Made by a program: the position numbers and the translations under genes
Shown here: piece after piece, positions 19,353-26,159 of the stretch
How positions within the stretch are numbered: position 1 is the stretch's first letter
How the letters are laid out: every line of letters begins with the position of its first letter
DNA from: an uncultured Methanoregulaceae archaeon
Lineage (GTDB): Archaea > Halobacteriota > Methanomicrobia > Methanomicrobiales > Methanospirillaceae
Assembly: GCA_963829335.1 (NCBI GenBank)
Contig: CAWHIE010000001.1
Location: forward strand, 174,474-238,473
Length of the DNA: 64,000 nt
Direction: 5' to 3'
Notes under the pieces: model-generated
What the model was told of the DNA's origin: nothing
Databases searched by the model: none
Seen by the model: only the letters and a program-made list of their open reading frames with translations

Positions 19353-19758
19353 TGTTTTTCAACTCTTTTTTGTGTTTTTCTGGCTGGTTCATCTGAACCA
19401 GGAAGATGGGAATGATGACATTTAGTCTCCATTCGAATCGGGGTGTCTCGGGGCCCTTTGACATACACTTATACGACGTGTGAGGGCTTAGTCGTGACTG
19501 AATCTTTTTGAAAATGGGGAAATGGGGATTGGATTGTTGTTTGATTGGGGATTGGGGCGTGTTATGAGCGGGGAACCTTTGGGAAAAAACGGGAGAATGG
19601 GGGAAAATTTGTTGATGAAATCAGTTATTTGCATTAATGGTCATATACAAATGGTTCGAACGCTTCTTTTTAAAATAAATCTAGAATTCGAGCAAATAGC
19701 ATAGGTTTTTCGATAATGAAATTAATAAATTAATTTAAAAAATTTATGGTAGACTTTA

Positions 19759-20478
19759 ATGAAAGATATAAAAAAAATTGTAGATCGATCTATAGAAAAA
19801 AATTGCAAATCGATTATATTTTATTATATTGCATATATTCAATTATTTATTTTACTCTCATCAATTATTTTAGTCATAATTGCTTTATTCGTGTTAATTT
19901 CATTCATTAATCTAATTTTCTCATTAGTATATGCCATAATCGTAGGCCTCTTTTTTTTGTTGTTTGGACGTTATGAGGAAAGATTGGGGGAAGATACGTA
20001 TCAATTAATACAAAAATATCCCGAAAGTCAGGTCGGGGAAAATCTCCATGCAATTATTATTGTGCATAAAAAATTGCCCAAAAAATCACCATATTCACCA
20101 AGTGATTACACCGAAGGAGTTGATATATTAATAAAAAAATTCCGAAACAATTCGATGCCTCAGAAATATCAAATATACGATATTTCTTTGAAAACAGAAT
20201 TTAAAGAAAAAATTGAAAATTGCAATGCTACCCACATATGGATTTTTGGTCATGGTCGACGATATGGGATAAAAACTATCGATGGTTTGTTATGTTATTT
20301 CGAATTAAAAAACATAGGACAAATCGAGTTTGTTGGACAATATCATTGTAATTCGTTATTAGGATCTAGTCTTGCTGATTATTATCACCCAAAGTATCAA
20401 GATGTCACCCGGTGGCCGAGATTTTCCTTTGGAATTCGGATATCTGTGAAGAAAAAATTAAATGAAATGGGAATATGA
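19759..20478 (+). CDS. Membrane-anchored caspase/CHAT-like cysteine protease
   Basis: Two N-terminal TM helices; HIWIFGHG and FVGQYHCNS give the His-Gly and Cys pattern of clan CD proteases. Confidence 0.6.
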   Translation: MKDIKKIVDRSIEKNCKSIIFYYIAYIQLFILLSSIILVIIALFVLISFINLIFSLVYAIIVGLFFLLFGRYEERLGEDTYQLIQKYPESQVGENLHAIIIVHKKLPKKSPYSPSDYTEGVDILIKKFRNNSMPQKYQIYDISLKTEFKEKIENCNATHIWIFGHGRRYGIKTIDGLLCYFELKNIGQIEFVGQYHCNSLLGSSLADYYHPKYQDVTRWPRFSFGIRISVKKKLNEMGI

Positions 20479-20973
20479 TATAAAAAAAAGAACCCAATCG
20501 GTAAATATGTGGTTGAATAAGGTCACGAATTACCAGGAAAAGGAGATTTCTTACGGTTATCTGATAGCGTTAAAAACGAGAGAAATTAGTACGTTCTCTG
20601 ACAGTTCAGAACGTCACTTTTAACGTTTCAACGTCAGGACTAAACGTTAGAGACGTGACGATTCCGACAAAATTCGACAAAAATACTTACATTAACTTAC
20701 GCGGAATAGCAGGAAATGGGATTTTCGAAGGGAACTTTATACTACATGAAAAAGAATGCGAAGGCCCATAAACCATTTACTCTAAATAAAAATGTTAGAG
20801 AAAGGCTGGAGTAGTGGGGGTTTGAGGGAAATCCGGGAATGTGTGGAAAGGATTAATCAATTGCCATGAAATTTAATCTGATGCATTCTGATATAAAGGG
20901 CATACTGATTATTATAGTTCATTACTAGCGATGATTCCCTTTGCCCATTATGCGGCTTCTGAAACGGATGAGC

Positions 20974-22165
20974 CTATTTTAAAGTTGATCTAAATAATAT
21001 TTCAGATTCAGCATCCTTTAAAGTTCCCAATTTTTTAATTTGTTCATTTAATACACTTGTCTCACGTTGAATTGAAAGCAATTTCATTCTATCCTCAGAA
21101 CTTGATGGAAAATCTGGAGCGACTCTGATAATGGTTGTTATAGATATTATCAAGACAAAACCCGCAATAAATAATGTTGACAAATCCAAGTATCTCCAAT
21201 AAAATATAAAAATAAATAACAATATATATGCAATAATTGTCAGAGGCAAATAAACATAAAGAAATTTTCTCTGTTTCATCCTTTTTTGTAAGGCATATTG
21301 CATCTTATCATAATTATTTAATTTGATCATATTTTCTTCATATTGTTCCTTAATTGGCTGTCGAATTTTGTCTGCTTTATCTTTGATCCAAATATCAAGT
21401 TCGGAAGTTATGGTTTCACCAAATATTGCCTTTATTGTTTGCATTACAGTCGAATGTATGATTATTCCCATAATTGAGATCGAGAGCCAATTTTCGTCGT
21501 GCATATGCTTTCACAACTTCAGCATCCCAAGGGATTGGATTTGGATATTTAACTACTTCAAGAAAATCTGTGAATGACTGAACAAAGTCTGGCAGCAATT
21601 TATTAAGCAAAATCCATGTTCGATCGATTGTTAAATCCTCTCTTAATAAACCTTTTAACCGCTCGACTCCAGCAGCTGACACTGGATCATATTCAGAAAC
21701 TATTATCACTTCATCTGAAATTCCTCTTTTCATACAAAATTGAGAAACCGGATTCGATCCGGTCTTGAGTATCAATAAATATGAAATCGAATTTTACTTT
21801 TGAGAATCTCAATATAGTATCAAGTCTAAATTTAAATGTTTCAAAAGGCACATTTTTAGTGTCAGAAAATGAAAAGATCGCTGGGAAAAAGACCACACCA
21901 TTTTTCATTTGAATTAATTCAAAGCTGTTTTATCTGATTTTTGTTCAAAAAGCCCTAAAGCATCCCTCTTTTGAGAAATTGCTATTTCAGCCTTGAGTTT
22001 TACTTCATCTATATAAAAAATTGTTAATCCATTGGTAGAGGCATCAGCATCAATAATAAGAACTTTTTTTCCCAATGCTACTAAAAATTCTGCAAAGGTT
22101 GCAGTAAGAAATGTTTTACCAGTCCCTCCTTTTGCACTTGCCATACAATAAATTTTAGCTTCCAC
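20974..22165 (-). CDS. ParA/MinD-type ATPase with C-terminal coiled coil and 2 TM helices (about 3 frameshifts)
   Basis: SAKGGTGKT, VLIIDADASTNG, FDFIFIDTQ, DEVIIVSEYDPVS, LLNK and IPWD spread across ORFs 21914-22192, 21711-21908, 21416-21775 and 20974-21504. Confidence 0.7.
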
Positions 22166-22697
22166 CTCTCGCCCCCTCCCACTCTTTAACAAGAGTCGAT
22201 GTATTGCTTATCTCTGAAGAAACTGCACTTTCTATATCGATTGTCGGATAACCCGCGGCGATTGGTTGATATGCTGCGTTAAATTCTTCAAAAGTCATCC
22301 CTTTGGTAAGAAAACACTCTACAAGTGGCATAATTCTTTCTTTGAACCTTAAAATTTGTCTTTGATCTTCAAGCAAAATTGCCACCTGTTTTTTAAATTC
22401 TGGTTCATTGTTACAAGGATCATTATAATATGATAAATATGCCATACGAAAATTGAATACAAGATTTTGATTAGACTCATCGATTTTAATAAGTATATGT
22501 GATGCTTTTTGAGCCCTTTTAGCATCAGCCTTTCCTATTAAATTATTAACCGCAGCACTTATAGAAAAAGTACTTCTACATCTTTAATAAATAGGGGAAT
22601 CGCATCATCGATATTTTTGAATCTAGTTTTTTTAGTAATGCCATCTGGGCAAGGAATTTCCTCTGTTTTTGAAAAAAAATGCGGATAATAAATTCAT
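22155..22697 (-). CDS. Hypothetical protein (~180 aa, frameshift near 22565) coupled to the ParA-like gene
   Basis: MNFIIRIFFSKTEEIPCPDG.. continues into ..NLVFNFRMAYLSYYNDPC..; its stop overlaps the ParA GTG start. Confidence 0.55.
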
Positions 22698-22924
22698 TTT
22701 AAATAGATCTATTGATTCTTGCAATAAAAATATATCTCCACATAAATAAAGATTTTAAAAAAATTTAAATGATTCTGAAGGATTAGAATGCGTAAAAATT
22801 ATATTTTTTATTATAAAATATTGGTGTCCCTCGCGCTGATTACTCTGAAGATATAGTGAAATTCAAAATAAAGGCTACGCAAAAAAAAGGTTTACATGAG
22901 CTAGATAACTATAACCCATAACAA

Positions 22925-22946
22925 TGCAAGAGACCGGATTCGAACC
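22925..22946 (-). repeat. tRNA(Leu)-like 3' fragment; probable att site
   Basis: Minus strand GG TTCGAAT CCGGT CTCTTGC A = T-loop, 3' T-stem, 7-nt acceptor strand and discriminator A; no 5' half. Confidence 0.7.
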
Positions 22947-23153
22947 CCATCTTCACTAATCATTCCTTTACTCCTTTTCTGAGATAATAGCGATGCTGGG
23001 ACCGTTGAGAATGGAATTCGAAAAAAAACATTCTTAATCGTTGCCGGAATGGAAAGGATGAAACAAAAAAGAGCCCAAGCATCGCCAATATCCTCCATGC
23101 TCAACACCTTTAACCTCCCCCACCACAAACTCACTAATCGCGAGAGATAACTC

Positions 23154-23441
23154 ATGGCCGTCTTCAGGTACGAGAACAAATACGCCGCCCCGACAAAGGA
23201 GCAGCGGGAACGCTACATGAAAGGGGAGCGTGAGGAGCATCATTTCGGGCCGGACGGGCAGATCGTGCTCATCCTCTGGCCTGAAGCAGCATACCTGAAA
23301 GATGACATTGACAACGTCCGGATCCTCTTTACCGGGTATAAGGATAAACAGAAGGTGCAGGATGAGGTGCGGAGGCTGGTGGAGTACCACCAGCAGAAGG
23401 ATAAACGCACAGGATCATTTTCTTCCGGAAATGAAACATAA
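23154..23441 (+). CDS. Hypothetical protein (95 aa) whose 3' end is duplicated downstream
   Basis: Clean ORF with host-like codon usage; contains repeat copy 1. Confidence 0.75.
   Translation: MAVFRYENKYAAPTKEQRERYMKGEREEHHFGPDGQIVLILWPEAAYLKDDIDNVRILFTGYKDKQKVQDEVRRLVEYHQQKDKRTGSFSSGNET
23355..23434 (+). repeat. 80-bp direct repeat, copy 1
   Basis: Matches 24373..24452 at 76/80 positions. Confidence 0.95.
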
Positions 23442-23452
23442 TCTTTATCTTA
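23441..23452 (+). promoter_or_regulatory. Putative TATA box for the structured-repeat/TA transcript
   Basis: ATCTTTATCTTA about 25 bp upstream of repeat unit A. Confidence 0.4.
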
Positions 23453-23469
23453 ACGCGATTACAATACTG

Positions 23470-23676
23470 TAAGTGGTTACAAAACTTTAAAGGCTGTAAG
23501 AGGGCGAAGCAGCAAACCGTGCTGTGATTGTATCCCTAACCAATTTAGCCTAGTCAGACCGACCTACACGAAGCTTAAGTGGGTACACAGAACTAAAGGC
23601 AGTAAGAGGACAACGCAACGAAACGTACCGCGATTGTATTCCTAAACCAATTTTGCCTAACGAACCAACCCGAGCT
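23470..23676 (+). ncRNA. Two tandem ~105-nt structured units (putative ncRNA / 5' leader)
   Basis: Units 23470..23575 and 23576..23676 align with conserved blocks and compensatory pairs (AGGCT/AGCCT vs AGGCA/TGCCT; AGGG/CCCT vs AGGA/TCCT). Confidence 0.65.
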
Positions 23677-23684
23677 GATACACA

Positions 23685-23909
23685 ATGACCGAAGTCGCAA
23701 ATAAGAGAATCCCCGTGACTGAAGAGATCTGGGAATCCCTCGCGGACCTGAAAAAACACGGTCAGACGTACGATCAACTCCTTGCGGAGATGATCGCACT
23801 CAAACAGGAACGTGATTTTCTGGCCCACATCGAGGAGATCGAAAAGCGCGGTGAGTTTGTCAGCCTGAAGGATGCTGCAAAAATGCTTAACATCCCGGAA
23901 TCAGGCTGA
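23685..23909 (+). CDS. RHH-type antitoxin (RelB/VapB-like)
   Basis: KRIPVTEEIWESLADLKKHGQTYDQLL ribbon-helix-helix pattern, acidic tail with GEFVSL, located upstream of RelE. Confidence 0.8.
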   Translation: MTEVANKRIPVTEEIWESLADLKKHGQTYDQLLAEMIALKQERDFLAHIEEIEKRGEFVSLKDAAKMLNIPESG

Positions 23910-23985
23910 AAGAACAGCCTGGCGAAATTTTGTCCTCTTGTTAAAGAGTGGCAAATGATAGGGGCAGGATTGCAGGAGTATAACC

Positions 23986-24258
23986 GTGGATGTTCAAATT
24001 GAACGAAGCGTCATCAAGACCCTCGAAAAGTATCCGGAGAAGATCCGGGAACATATCTTCAACCACCTCCGCAAACTTGAAGATCCGTACAGCGCACCTG
24101 ATGTGGAATGTCTGTATCCCAAAGTGCAGATCTATCGTATGCATATCGGGCGGGCTTACACGGTTATTTTCAGGATTAACAATGAATCAAACATCGTCCT
24201 GGTGCTTGATCTGATGACCATCGAACAGGCACACAAAAGATACGGCCGCTACTCCTGA
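23986..24258 (+). CDS. RelE/ParE family toxin
   Basis: VIKTLEKYP..IFNHLRKLEDPY..IYRMHIGRAYTVIFRI..IVLVLDL..AHKRY. Confidence 0.88.
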   Translation: MDVQIERSVIKTLEKYPEKIREHIFNHLRKLEDPYSAPDVECLYPKVQIYRMHIGRAYTVIFRINNESNIVLVLDLMTIEQAHKRYGRYS

Positions 24259-24372
24259 CGGTAGAGACCCTCCTGGTTGCGGCTCTATGGTACCGGAGCA
24301 TTCGTTCCCGGTCTTCATTTTCCTGTTTTACTCTTACCGTAAATCTCGATAAATATGGGAAAATCCGCAGAT

Positions 24373-24452
24373 GTGCAGGATGAGGTGCGGAGGCTGGTGG
24401 AGTACCACCAGCAGAAGGACGAACGCACGGGATCATTTTCTTCCGGAAACGA
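24373..24452 (+). repeat. 80-bp direct repeat, copy 2
   Basis: Matches 23355..23434 at 76/80 positions. Confidence 0.95.
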
Positions 24453-24697
24453 GAGGTGATGCCGTAGTTATCCGGTATTAATGTTTCACGTATGCGTCCA
24501 CCTCCAGTTCGAAGAAACGCGTTCTTCCCGAATTTTGCTCTGTACTTTTTCTGAGATAGTGTAATGCCAGGACATCGCGAACAGAATCCGGAAAACAGCA
24601 GCATGACGCAAGGTACGTAAAAATGCGCATATCGTGTACGAAATAAATGCCTTAATCATCAGGGACAGCAGATGGGTTTCAATGTCGGGGTTCTAAA

Positions 24698-24862
24698 ATG
24701 ACGCAAAGATACCGCTGCGGCGGGGATTACACGAATACTTTTTCAAATACGGCTGATGTGAAGAGTTACCAACGAAAACATGGCGGACGGATTTACATCT
24801 GCGAGTTTAAAACCGGGAGGCCGGCAGCAGAACAGGACTGGCGACCCATTACGTTGAGATGA
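24698..24862 (+). CDS. Possible 54-aa protein (below ORF-track cutoff)
   Basis: MTQRYRCGGDYTNTFSNTADVKSYQRKHGGRIYICEFKTGRPAAEQDWRPITLR*; lies between repeat copies 2 and 3. Confidence 0.35.
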   Translation: MTQRYRCGGDYTNTFSNTADVKSYQRKHGGRIYICEFKTGRPAAEQDWRPITLR

Positions 24863-25011
24863 GGTGAAATTCAGGAACGTAATTGCGATTAACAAAGATC
24901 TAAAATAATGAATCAGTCGTCATTCCCTTCGGGCCTTTCTTTGTATGGTTCGTAGTGCATAATTCTTTTGCCATGTTAAGAACCGCACAATGATTATCAA
25001 AAAACCACGCA

Positions 25012-25031
25012 CATTTTCTTCCGGAAACGAG
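25012..25031 (+). repeat. Partial third copy of the repeat core
   Basis: CATTTTCTTCCGGAAACGAG is identical to 24434..24453. Confidence 0.85.
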
Positions 25032-25106
25032 GGCTGACAGTGAAAGGTAAGGCCTCTAAAGACATGAAAAATGCCCGGGACTGATGAACATATCAGCTCA
25101 CGGTTT

Positions 25107-26159
25107 TTACCGTGAGTGATGAGCCGGAACCGGATTTTTCAATAAAAAAATATGGACTCCTAACGCCAGGCTCCAGAGAATAAGTGCGCCTATCAGGACG
25201 AGAGCACCGAGGGTGGCATACTGAATCGGGGATGCCGGGGTCGGTTGCTGGACAGGTGCAGTGACAACAAACGGGATCTCGGTATAGGTGTCATCAACCG
25301 TGGGGTCATTGAGAGCAGCGATAAGCGCTTCTGCTGCGTCGTGACCCTGGAGGCTTCCTGCGCCGGTGATCCTGAAGAGGTTCATTCCGGTGCCTGGACT
25401 TCCGCCTTGAAGCTGGAGATTCTTTACCCAGTCCCCGCTCACAACGATATCAAGCTGGTTATTCTGCATCGGGTGCTGGACGATAAGATACCATTGTCCG
25501 GCGGGAAGTTTTTCTGAGATTTGCGGGGTGATATTGAATAAGAATGATGAATCGGGATTTGTGGGGCTGGTCGTGGTAAAGACATAGGTATCGCCGATGA
25601 TCCATGCCTGGACGGCCCCCGGGTTTCCTTCCGCAAATCCGGTGACCGTGAAAGGCTGTCCTTTTGAAATCTCAAGTGGTGTGATCTCTGCAGTTATAAA
25701 CGGCTTTTTGAATATTACCCGGGCAGATTTGTTCTCAGCAGCGGTTACCTGGGCTGCCGTTTTTGGCTGGCTCACTGCATAGATGGCATACGGCCCGGGA
25801 TTAATCCCGAGGTTATTGGTGTAAAGGGTGTATTCCCACGTTTTATCCGGTTTTGTCTGTACCCTGGCGAAGGAATTGGGATCTCCGATGCTGACATTCT
25901 GGAGAGGCGAAGTAAGTTTTCCGCCATTCGGGGAGATGCCTGGTCCGGTCATAAAGAGGTACGTGAAATCCGAATCATAGTTGGAACCACTCAAGACTAT
26001 TTCTTCCCCAAGATAATAGGACTGGTCTCCCTGTGCGGAGACAGTAACTCCCGTTTCCGCAGAGACAGGGGATATCAATACTACGGCTGTTCCTGCAATG
26101 ATAAGCAACAGGATCATTTTTTGGAACCTGAACGTTTTCTCACTGGCTGTCATTACCAT
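25107..26159 (-). CDS. Cell-surface glycoprotein (DUF3821 / Methanomicrobiales S-layer-related)
   Basis: Signal peptide, AQGDQSYYLGEEIVLSG, KKPFITA, IVQHPMQN, DDTYT, C-terminal TM. Confidence 0.8.
   Translation of the reverse strand: MVMTASEKTFRFQKMILLLIIAGTAVVLISPVSAETGVTVSAQGDQSYYLGEEIVLSGSNYDSDFTYLFMTGPGISPNGGKLTSPLQNVSIGDPNSFARVQTKPDKTWEYTLYTNNLGINPGPYAIYAVSQPKTAAQVTAAENKSARVIFKKPFITAEITPLEISKGQPFTVTGFAEGNPGAVQAWIIGDTYVFTTTSPTNPDSSFLFNITPQISEKLPAGQWYLIVQHPMQNNQLDIVVSGDWVKNLQLQGGSPGTGMNLFRITGAGSLQGHDAAEALIAALNDPTVDDTYTEIPFVVTAPVQQPTPASPIQYATLGALVLIGALILWSLALGVHIFLLKNPVPAHHSR

Follow-up and report, generated by a model that had tools for sequence, protein, structure and literature searches.

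We found that the 5′ leader of a RelE toxin-antitoxin (TA) operon in the window, i.e., the whole 64,000-nucleotide stretch of an uncultured Methanoregulaceae genome analyzed here, carries two tandem copies of a unit whose comparison across approximately 25 related loci supports a sense-strand structured RNA module with compensating mutations. Sequence and covariance searches confirmed this unit as an undescribed RNA motif of narrow range, specific to one mobile RelE operon family in Methanoregula. The leader measures approximately 212 nt from the predicted transcription start to the antitoxin gene, and the locus is laid out as follows.

23444-23453, + strand: TTTATCTTAA, the TATA-like box of the TA promoter; its distance to the operator is constant among related loci of all leader types

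23458-23500, + strand: operator-like half-sites ATTACA (23458), TGTAAG (23468), GTTACA (23476), and TGTAAG (23495)

23470-23575, + strand: repeat unit 1, 106 nt, made of a duplicated operator part, a folded core, and a linker

23487-23560, + strand: folded core of unit 1 (covariance model, 74.3 bits; MFE fold; pair counts), with P1 at 23491-23496/23546-23551, the UAAG loop at 23497-23500, P2 at 23501-23504/23534-23537, P2b at 23505-23507/23528-23530, the UAU bulge at 23531-23533, and P3 at 23509-23514/23520-23525

23576-23684, + strand: repeat unit 2, 109 nt, reaching up to the antitoxin ATG

23593-23667, + strand: folded core of unit 2 (covariance model, 85.5 bits; MFE fold), with P1 at 23597-23602/23653-23658, P2 at 23607-23610/23640-23643, P2b at 23611-23613/23634-23636, and the UAU bulge at 23637-23639

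23672-23678, + strand: Shine-Dalgarno (SD)-like element GAGCTGA, 6 nt before the antitoxin ATG

23685-23909, + strand: antitoxin gene, 74 aa, with weak matches to Pfam DUF7557 and VapB_antitox

23910-23985, + strand: antitoxin-toxin spacer, 76 nt, with hairpin-forming inverted repeats (CAGGCTG..CAGCCTG from 23902)

23986-24258, + strand: RelE-family toxin gene, 90 aa, GTG start, with a Pfam ParE_toxin match and a RelE fold

The first-pass annotation of this DNA had described a duplicated unit of approximately 106 nt between a TATA-like box and the antitoxin ATG, and both elements were borne out: units 1 and 2 share 77% identity over 84 nt (blastn E value of 1.4e-15), their global alignment score lies 10.8 standard deviations above that of dinucleotide shuffles, and the box TTTATCTTAA is kept in all related loci. 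Tandem Repeats Finder did not detect the repeat in the window because the copies are too diverged. The paired segments that the annotation had named were present where it had placed them, the outer stem being AGGCT (23491)/AGCCT (23547) in unit 1 versus AGGCA (23597)/TGCCT (23654) in unit 2 and the inner stem AGGG (23501)/CCCT (23534) versus AGGA (23607)/TCCT (23640), together with the CGA/TTG versus CAA/TTG pair and the TAT bulge (23531 and 23637). The core, approximately 75 nt long, is an irregular hairpin in the order P1-P2-P2b-P3, in which P1 has 6 bp, P2 has 4 bp, and P2b has 3 bp, with a UAAG/RAYYGAAAUU internal loop whose side opposite UAAG is 11 nt long; ViennaRNA gave the same shape for both window units. 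Single-unit fold z-scores were weak (−0.6 for unit 1 and −0.3 for unit 2), neither unit being significantly stabler than shuffles. In the linkers, no structure was found beyond trivial pairing of the P1 3′ strand of one unit with the P1 5′ strand of the next.

The ancestral duplication began at the second operator half-site and stopped just short of the SD element. Because it included part of the operator, the inter-unit linker is a decayed operator copy, as the alignment of the linkers shows in all lineages. In each unit, the unpaired UAAG represents the last bases of a TGTAAG half-site, whose CTTACA counterpart has become degenerate in the downstream units. TAAGTGG, previously listed as a conserved block of the unit, turned out to be this duplicated part of the DNA operator (CTTACA/TGTAAG half-sites), lying outside the folded core.

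Evidence for an RNA structure came from 47 distinct units of 24 loci, in which the named structure P1-P2-UAU-P2b-P3 was tested and the pairing-preserving differences first noticed between the two window copies were upheld. Pairing occurred in 82.6% of 918 cells, compared to 30 to 41% when the 3′ partners were slid; P1 was paired in 95% and P2 in 92%, and 11 pairs showed changes on both sides. The covariation score was 0.205 versus 0.156 ± 0.007, a value reached by none of 500 shuffles. When the tree was taken into account, 11 double changes on the same branch ended in a standard pair, corresponding to a compensatory rate of 0.0355 versus 0.0069 for other column pairs, approximately 5-fold higher (0 of 5,000 resamples). 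In P1, AGGCU/AGCCU was exchanged for AGGCA/UGCCU, GGGCU/AGCCC (via G·U intermediates), or AAGCU/AGCUU, while in P2 AGGG/CCCU became AGGA/UCCU in two separate lineages or AAGG/CCUU. The P3 hairpin persists with its sequence wholly changed (CGCGAT/ATCGCG, GCAGCA/TGCTGT, GCAGTAA/TTATTGC, and TCGTGAT/ATTGCGA), and the commonest unit type has a weak P3. The claim that G-U wobbles favor the + strand also held, with 140 G·U cells (G10·U73 in 42 of the 47 units) and a mean fold z-score of −1.58 on the + strand versus −0.34 on the reverse complement. The MFE fold contained P1 in 37 and P2 in 32 of the 47 units; RNAalifold, run on both alignments, gave P1 only as a consensus, P2 and P3 having been tested as part of the named structure. 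All carriers are closely related members of part of one genus, and recent common descent may alone account for the conservation of the loop sequences. With an operator half-site (TGTAAG) in each unit, constraint on the DNA could also explain some of the sequence conservation.

When 401 genomes of the order were searched at the DNA level, the leader turned up solely in the genus of the window, in 12 of 102 other genomes; the carrier genus is Methanoregula, with MAGs from peat and wetland. Anchoring on the antitoxin protein yielded 15 genome loci and 46 metagenome loci, and approximately 45 related Methanoregula loci were gathered. The promoter, the CTTACA/TGTAAG operator, and both genes are kept in all antitoxin-anchored loci, and the stretch from operator to SD is modular, being short (approximately 45 to 55 nt), one of several unrelated sequences of approximately 90 nt, or the studied unit. 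As determined with nhmmer and the covariance model, the unit is always on the sense strand, between the operator and the antitoxin ATG (24 distinct loci and one truncated), as one copy in 5 loci, two in 11, and three in 8.

The covariance model, whose construction had been proposed at the outset, matched solely TA leaders: its two matches in the window's own genome are the two window units, and its matches in 8 of 108 genomes of the genus all fall at TA leaders, real units scoring 28 to 97 bits. It had no match in 150 other genomes sampled across the order, and the exact 15-mer matches obtained from genome contigs all fell in unrelated phyla and were attributable to chance (≤19 bits with the model). 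In the more distant TA homologues (toxins 61 to 64% identical, including that of Methanocalculus), promoter and operator are kept and the leader is long, but the unit is missing (best score, 13 bits). No relative of the antitoxin was found in viral contigs. The element had been put forward as undescribed; consistent with this, Rfam 15 gave no match to the unit in positions 22000 to 26000 of the window at an E value of ≤10, a lone 17-bit chance match elsewhere being unrelated, and a literature search found no description of such a leader. A MITE or insertion sequence (IS) terminal repeat, the IS end having been named as an alternative, is ruled out, as there are no dispersed copies elsewhere in the genome and the unit occurs only at TA leaders in the 108 genomes of the genus.

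The promoter and operator are shared well beyond the unit. From archaeal promoter geometry, the transcription start is predicted approximately 25 nt past the TATA box, at approximately 23470 to 23476, inside the operator. The four operator-like half-sites are arranged as two inverted repeats, one with a 4-nt and the other with a 13-nt spacer, and the CTTACA/TGTAAG words are kept across all leader types and in the distant homologues. On a Methanotrichaceae contig (L033, approximately 1440 to 1500), a 52%-identical antitoxin homologue without a long leader is preceded, just before its ATG, by three direct CTTACA repeats with 9-nt spacing; this triple supports CTTACA/TGTAAG as the operator word of the antitoxin family, and we infer that the antitoxin binds this predicted operator. 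The SD-like element is GAGCTGA or GGAGTGA in related loci.

The assignment of the pair to RelBE-type type II modules, in line with the type II TA module named in the first-pass annotation, is justified at the level of sequence and structural models, with toxicity and neutralization as predicted properties. The toxin matched Pfam ParE_toxin (PF05016) with an E value of 8.7e-5 and 23.5 bits (cutoff, 23), and its AF2 model (pLDDT of 91) had as top Foldseek matches the RelE proteins of T. thermophilus, M. tuberculosis, P. horikoshii, and M. jannaschii, as well as YoeB (structures 2KHE, 9G12, 3G5O, 1WMI from Pyrococcus with a TM score of 0.75, and 3BPQ); 1WMI and 3BPQ are archaeal aRelE-aRelB structures. 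Its homologues are named RelE family in public sources, and a C-terminal HKRYxRY is invariant in 24 homologues. For the antitoxin, DUF7557 is on record for a homologue, and the AF2 model shows an extended N terminus followed by helices, with an invariant G-Q-T turn. A fold search with the antitoxin gave no significant match, and sequence searches of PDB with both proteins and of NCBIfam returned nothing; the model suggests that the antitoxin N terminus may be a ribbon-helix-helix-like DNA binder.

Within the region 23902 to 23985, the antitoxin stop codon lies inside the 7-bp hairpin CAGGCTG..CAGCCTG, and a second inverted repeat, in the TTTTGTCC..GGCAAA region, precedes the toxin GTG. A version of the spacer is conserved in many relatives, and its hairpins may affect the relative translation or stability of the two cistrons.

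The module common to different genomic contexts runs from approximately 23437 to approximately 24264. In the window, the cassette sits between 80-nt direct repeats that are 95% identical (23355 to 23434 and 24373 to 24452) and correspond to the 3′ end of an upstream 95-aa open reading frame (ORF) (23154 to 23441); a third, 26-nt copy of the end of the repeat is found at 25012 to 25037, after another ~550 nt of ORF-poor DNA. Adjoining the cassette is an island of approximately 30% GC (19500 to 23000) in a background of approximately 50 to 55% GC, which holds a ParA/MinD-type P-loop ORF split into several pieces (21416 to 22192). In a related locus (L034, 109 to 1239), the TA promoter comes directly after the stop codon of a gene for a tyrosine recombinase of 376 aa (Pfam Phage_integrase, E value of 6e-14) with a C-terminal zinc ribbon, an arrangement seen also in the upstream regions of L019, L023/L047, and L099. 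No integrase of the L034 type was found in the window's genome (76% complete). The setting in these relatives gives the TA pair the appearance of an addiction module carried by an integrative element.

Antitoxins 89 to 97% identical to that of the window occur with short or unrelated ~90-nt leaders, and leader types and copy numbers are interspersed on the TA-gene tree, which points to recombination within the conserved flanks. On this tree (loci L020 to L076; short leaders, types B and C, and one to three units), type B leaders nest among one- and two-unit loci; they yielded no consensus fold and are unstructured and rich in GTAA/TTAC words. Because near-identical TA operons carry short or unrelated leaders and the types are interspersed, the function of the unit would be accessory: to judge from these comparisons, the TA pair clearly works without the unit, which is an optional add-on. 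The leader, and not the proteins, is the fast-evolving, recombining part of the mobile cassette.

In predictions for 20 loci, the SD was 0.22 to 0.74 unpaired and the AUG mostly unpaired, no consensus helix covered the ribosome-binding site, and sequestration of the SD or AUG by the last unit was not seen. Neither a conserved T-run nor a terminator hairpin was found between the last unit and the antitoxin ATG, and pairing of the units with either the spacer that separates the two genes or the region around the toxin start gave z-scores near 0 in most loci, with no conserved site. An RNA-library contig from a related strain extends from within a unit across the SD and into antitoxin coding sequence; DNA carry-over being possible, this bridging contig weakly supports that the units are co-transcribed with the antitoxin gene. 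RNA-library contigs of relatives leave positions 23555 to 23647 of the leader uncovered, which is uninformative as the contigs break at repeats and come from relatives only.

Several candidate motifs were rejected. A leader peptide was considered for the commonest unit type (L047, L029, L040, L054, L021, and others; alignment columns 14 to 64), where an SD-like GAGGG is followed at a distance of 3 nt by an ATG. This ATG opens a 10-codon frame (MQRNVRRLYP) that stops at the TAA or TGA of CCCTAAC/CCCTGAC, and the combination occurs in 25 of the 47 units. We regard this frame as incidental, since the remaining units, those of the window among them, have no such ATG and a single inserted nucleotide alters the peptide. 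Inspected by eye, neither a kink-turn (GA/GA beside a 3-nt bulge) nor the archaeal bulge-helix-bulge splice motif fits, given the 11-nt loop opposite UAAG.

Since each unit arose through duplication of part of the operator, it could be a DNA-level element that gives the antitoxin repressor a further, auxiliary half-site to bind (TGTAAG plus a TGTAT-like word), with sites approximately 106 bp, or approximately ten helical turns, apart, extending autorepression into the transcribed region and leaving the RNA fold secondary. That TGTAAG/CTTACA are conserved operator words of the whole family, that the unpaired UAAG of every unit is the TGTAAG word, and that the unstructured type B leaders are likewise rich in GTAA/TTAC all agree with it. 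However, column 9, the first base of the TGTAAG-derived word, covaries with its RNA partner (T-A to A-T), and the partner half-site CTTACA is degenerate in downstream units; a DNA-only reading thus explains less than the RNA reading, and compensatory changes and abundant G·U pairs are meaningless for duplex DNA. We therefore consider it unlikely. Similarly improbable in our judgment is that slippage or recombination merely duplicated a fast-evolving leader whose hairpins persist without function. Such neutral expansion would fit the frequent change in copy number, the dispensability of the unit, the leader being the most variable part of the cassette, and the modest thermodynamic stability, but not the excess of same-branch compensatory changes (5-fold over background) or a fold asymmetry specific to the sense strand. 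In addition, first and last units keep distinct identities across loci, which argues that the tandem state is old relative to the divergence of the loci. If the module were only neutral expansion, it would be of minor interest.

The well conserved internal loops enclosed by covarying stems, in an arrangement like that of known tandem riboswitches, could also form tandem ligand-sensing aptamers, i.e., an archaeal riboswitch coupling a small-molecule signal to TA expression. The leader indeed has a covarying aptamer-type fold, within a narrow phylogenetic range, but the riboswitch-like leader suggested by the first-pass annotation lacks an expression platform, with no terminator and no SD-sequestering structure. 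A riboswitch-type gate is disfavored by the absence of a terminator, the open SD and AUG, the lack of pairing with the toxin start, and the unstructured linker; as the units are also optional among near-identical operons, associated with no metabolic gene, and restricted to part of one genus, we find this reading very hard to credit. The same annotation had further envisaged an extra RNA antitoxin, a RelE-processed substrate, or a protected RNA cargo. Tandem structured repeats upstream of a toxin gene are what processed RNAs of approximately 105 nt acting in trans would call for, either in a type II/III hybrid, as a second antidote or a decoy directed at the toxin, or as another riboregulator, and a second RNA-library contig from a related strain does consist of a linker and a unit only, an observation that cannot be ranked as assemblies break at repeats. 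Against these proposals, every locus encodes a protein antitoxin, the toxin fold is that of RelE and not of a ToxN/AbiQ-type RNase, no terminator follows the repeats, no conserved complementarity to the toxin translation start region was found, and TA pairs with near-identical proteins lack the units, leader types being shuffled on the TA tree. Characterized RelE-fold toxins cut translated mRNA on the ribosome, not free structured RNA repeats. The dispensable units, the RelE fold, and the constant protein antitoxin thus disfavor a type III-like reading, and action in trans appears highly doubtful. It would be a long shot, too, that the units are excised as ~105-nt RNAs whose conserved loops control toxin release by binding RelE, the TA complex, or a signal of stress or viral origin; if true, the system would be an archaeal hybrid of protein-antitoxin (type II) and RNA-antitoxin (type III) systems.

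As in type III TA systems (ToxI, CptI, and TenpI), tandem structured RNA repeats behind one promoter lie upstream of a toxin on mobile DNA. Type III repeats are approximately 35 to 45 nt long, are followed by a terminator, replace the protein antitoxin, and are cut by their own ToxN/AbiQ-type endoRNase toxin (PMC4147584, PMC4627078). Here, by contrast, the units are approximately 106 nt, precede a protein antitoxin gene, are dispensable, and have no terminator, and the toxin has a RelE fold and not one of the ToxN/AbiQ/CptN type; the RNA does not stand in for a protein antitoxin, as the conserved 74-aa antitoxin ORF stands between units and toxin in all loci. The order antitoxin-toxin, the RelE fold, the C-terminal Arg/Tyr cluster, and the palindromic putative operator at the promoter are those of RelBE type II modules. 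Described RelBE modules have short leaders, and their genes usually overlap or are closely spaced, whereas leaders in the window's family are 90 to 330 nt long, here with structured repeats, and the genes are separated by a 76-nt structured intergenic spacer. Tandem riboswitches, e.g., the glycine riboswitch and tandem aptamer arrangements (PMC9481103), likewise repeat one covarying fold two or three times within a 5′ leader; the units studied here differ in having no expression platform or ligand-related gene context, in being optional, and in being confined to one genus.

The units also recall integron attC sites, as imperfect hairpins that keep their shape while their sequence varies, beside TA cassettes of which some relatives adjoin a tyrosine recombinase. 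An attC site adopts its fold in single-stranded DNA and is located at a cassette's 3′ end, whereas the units lie inside a transcribed leader downstream of the operator, in 0 to 3 tandem copies, and depend on G·U pairs. An attC site was rejected, the units being internal to the module 23437 to 24264 and downstream of its promoter. Bacterial 5′-UTR stabilizer stem-loops, such as that of the ompA leader, are single simple hairpins at the extreme 5′ end. Under our working model, the units would resemble them as autonomous leader hairpins that leave the ribosome-binding site free and could set mRNA lifetime, and would differ in being a repeated, internally looped 75-nt module approximately 20 nt past the predicted 5′ end, for which an effect on stability is only proposed.

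Given the open ribosome-binding site and the absence of a terminator, a docking or stability role is the most likely of the functions considered, and we tentatively favor the units as an accessory, cis-acting structured 5′-UTR module of the RelE TA mRNA, acting as a docking or stability element. Transcription would start approximately 25 nt past the TATA box, probably inside the operator, and proceed through a leader of approximately 212 nt, the antitoxin, and the toxin. Each unit would fold independently into P1, the UAAG/RAYYGAAAUU loop, P2, the UAU bulge, P2b, and a sequence-variable P3, and the module might be where a protein or RNase docks and thereby determines how long the TA mRNA lasts or how fast it is translated, with the copy number, from 0 to 3, setting the strength of the effect. 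In this scheme, we infer the transcription start, the bound factor, and any effect on expression.

Control of type II TA operons is usually explained by transcriptional autorepression alone, and to our knowledge few cis-acting structured RNAs are known in archaea. The unit would add to these a covariation-supported, repeatable leader module of a type II operon. Near-identical operons with 0 to 3 copies or a different leader constitute a natural allelic series, which suits the question of whether leader structure may tune the antitoxin:toxin balance or mRNA lifetime in a methanogen.
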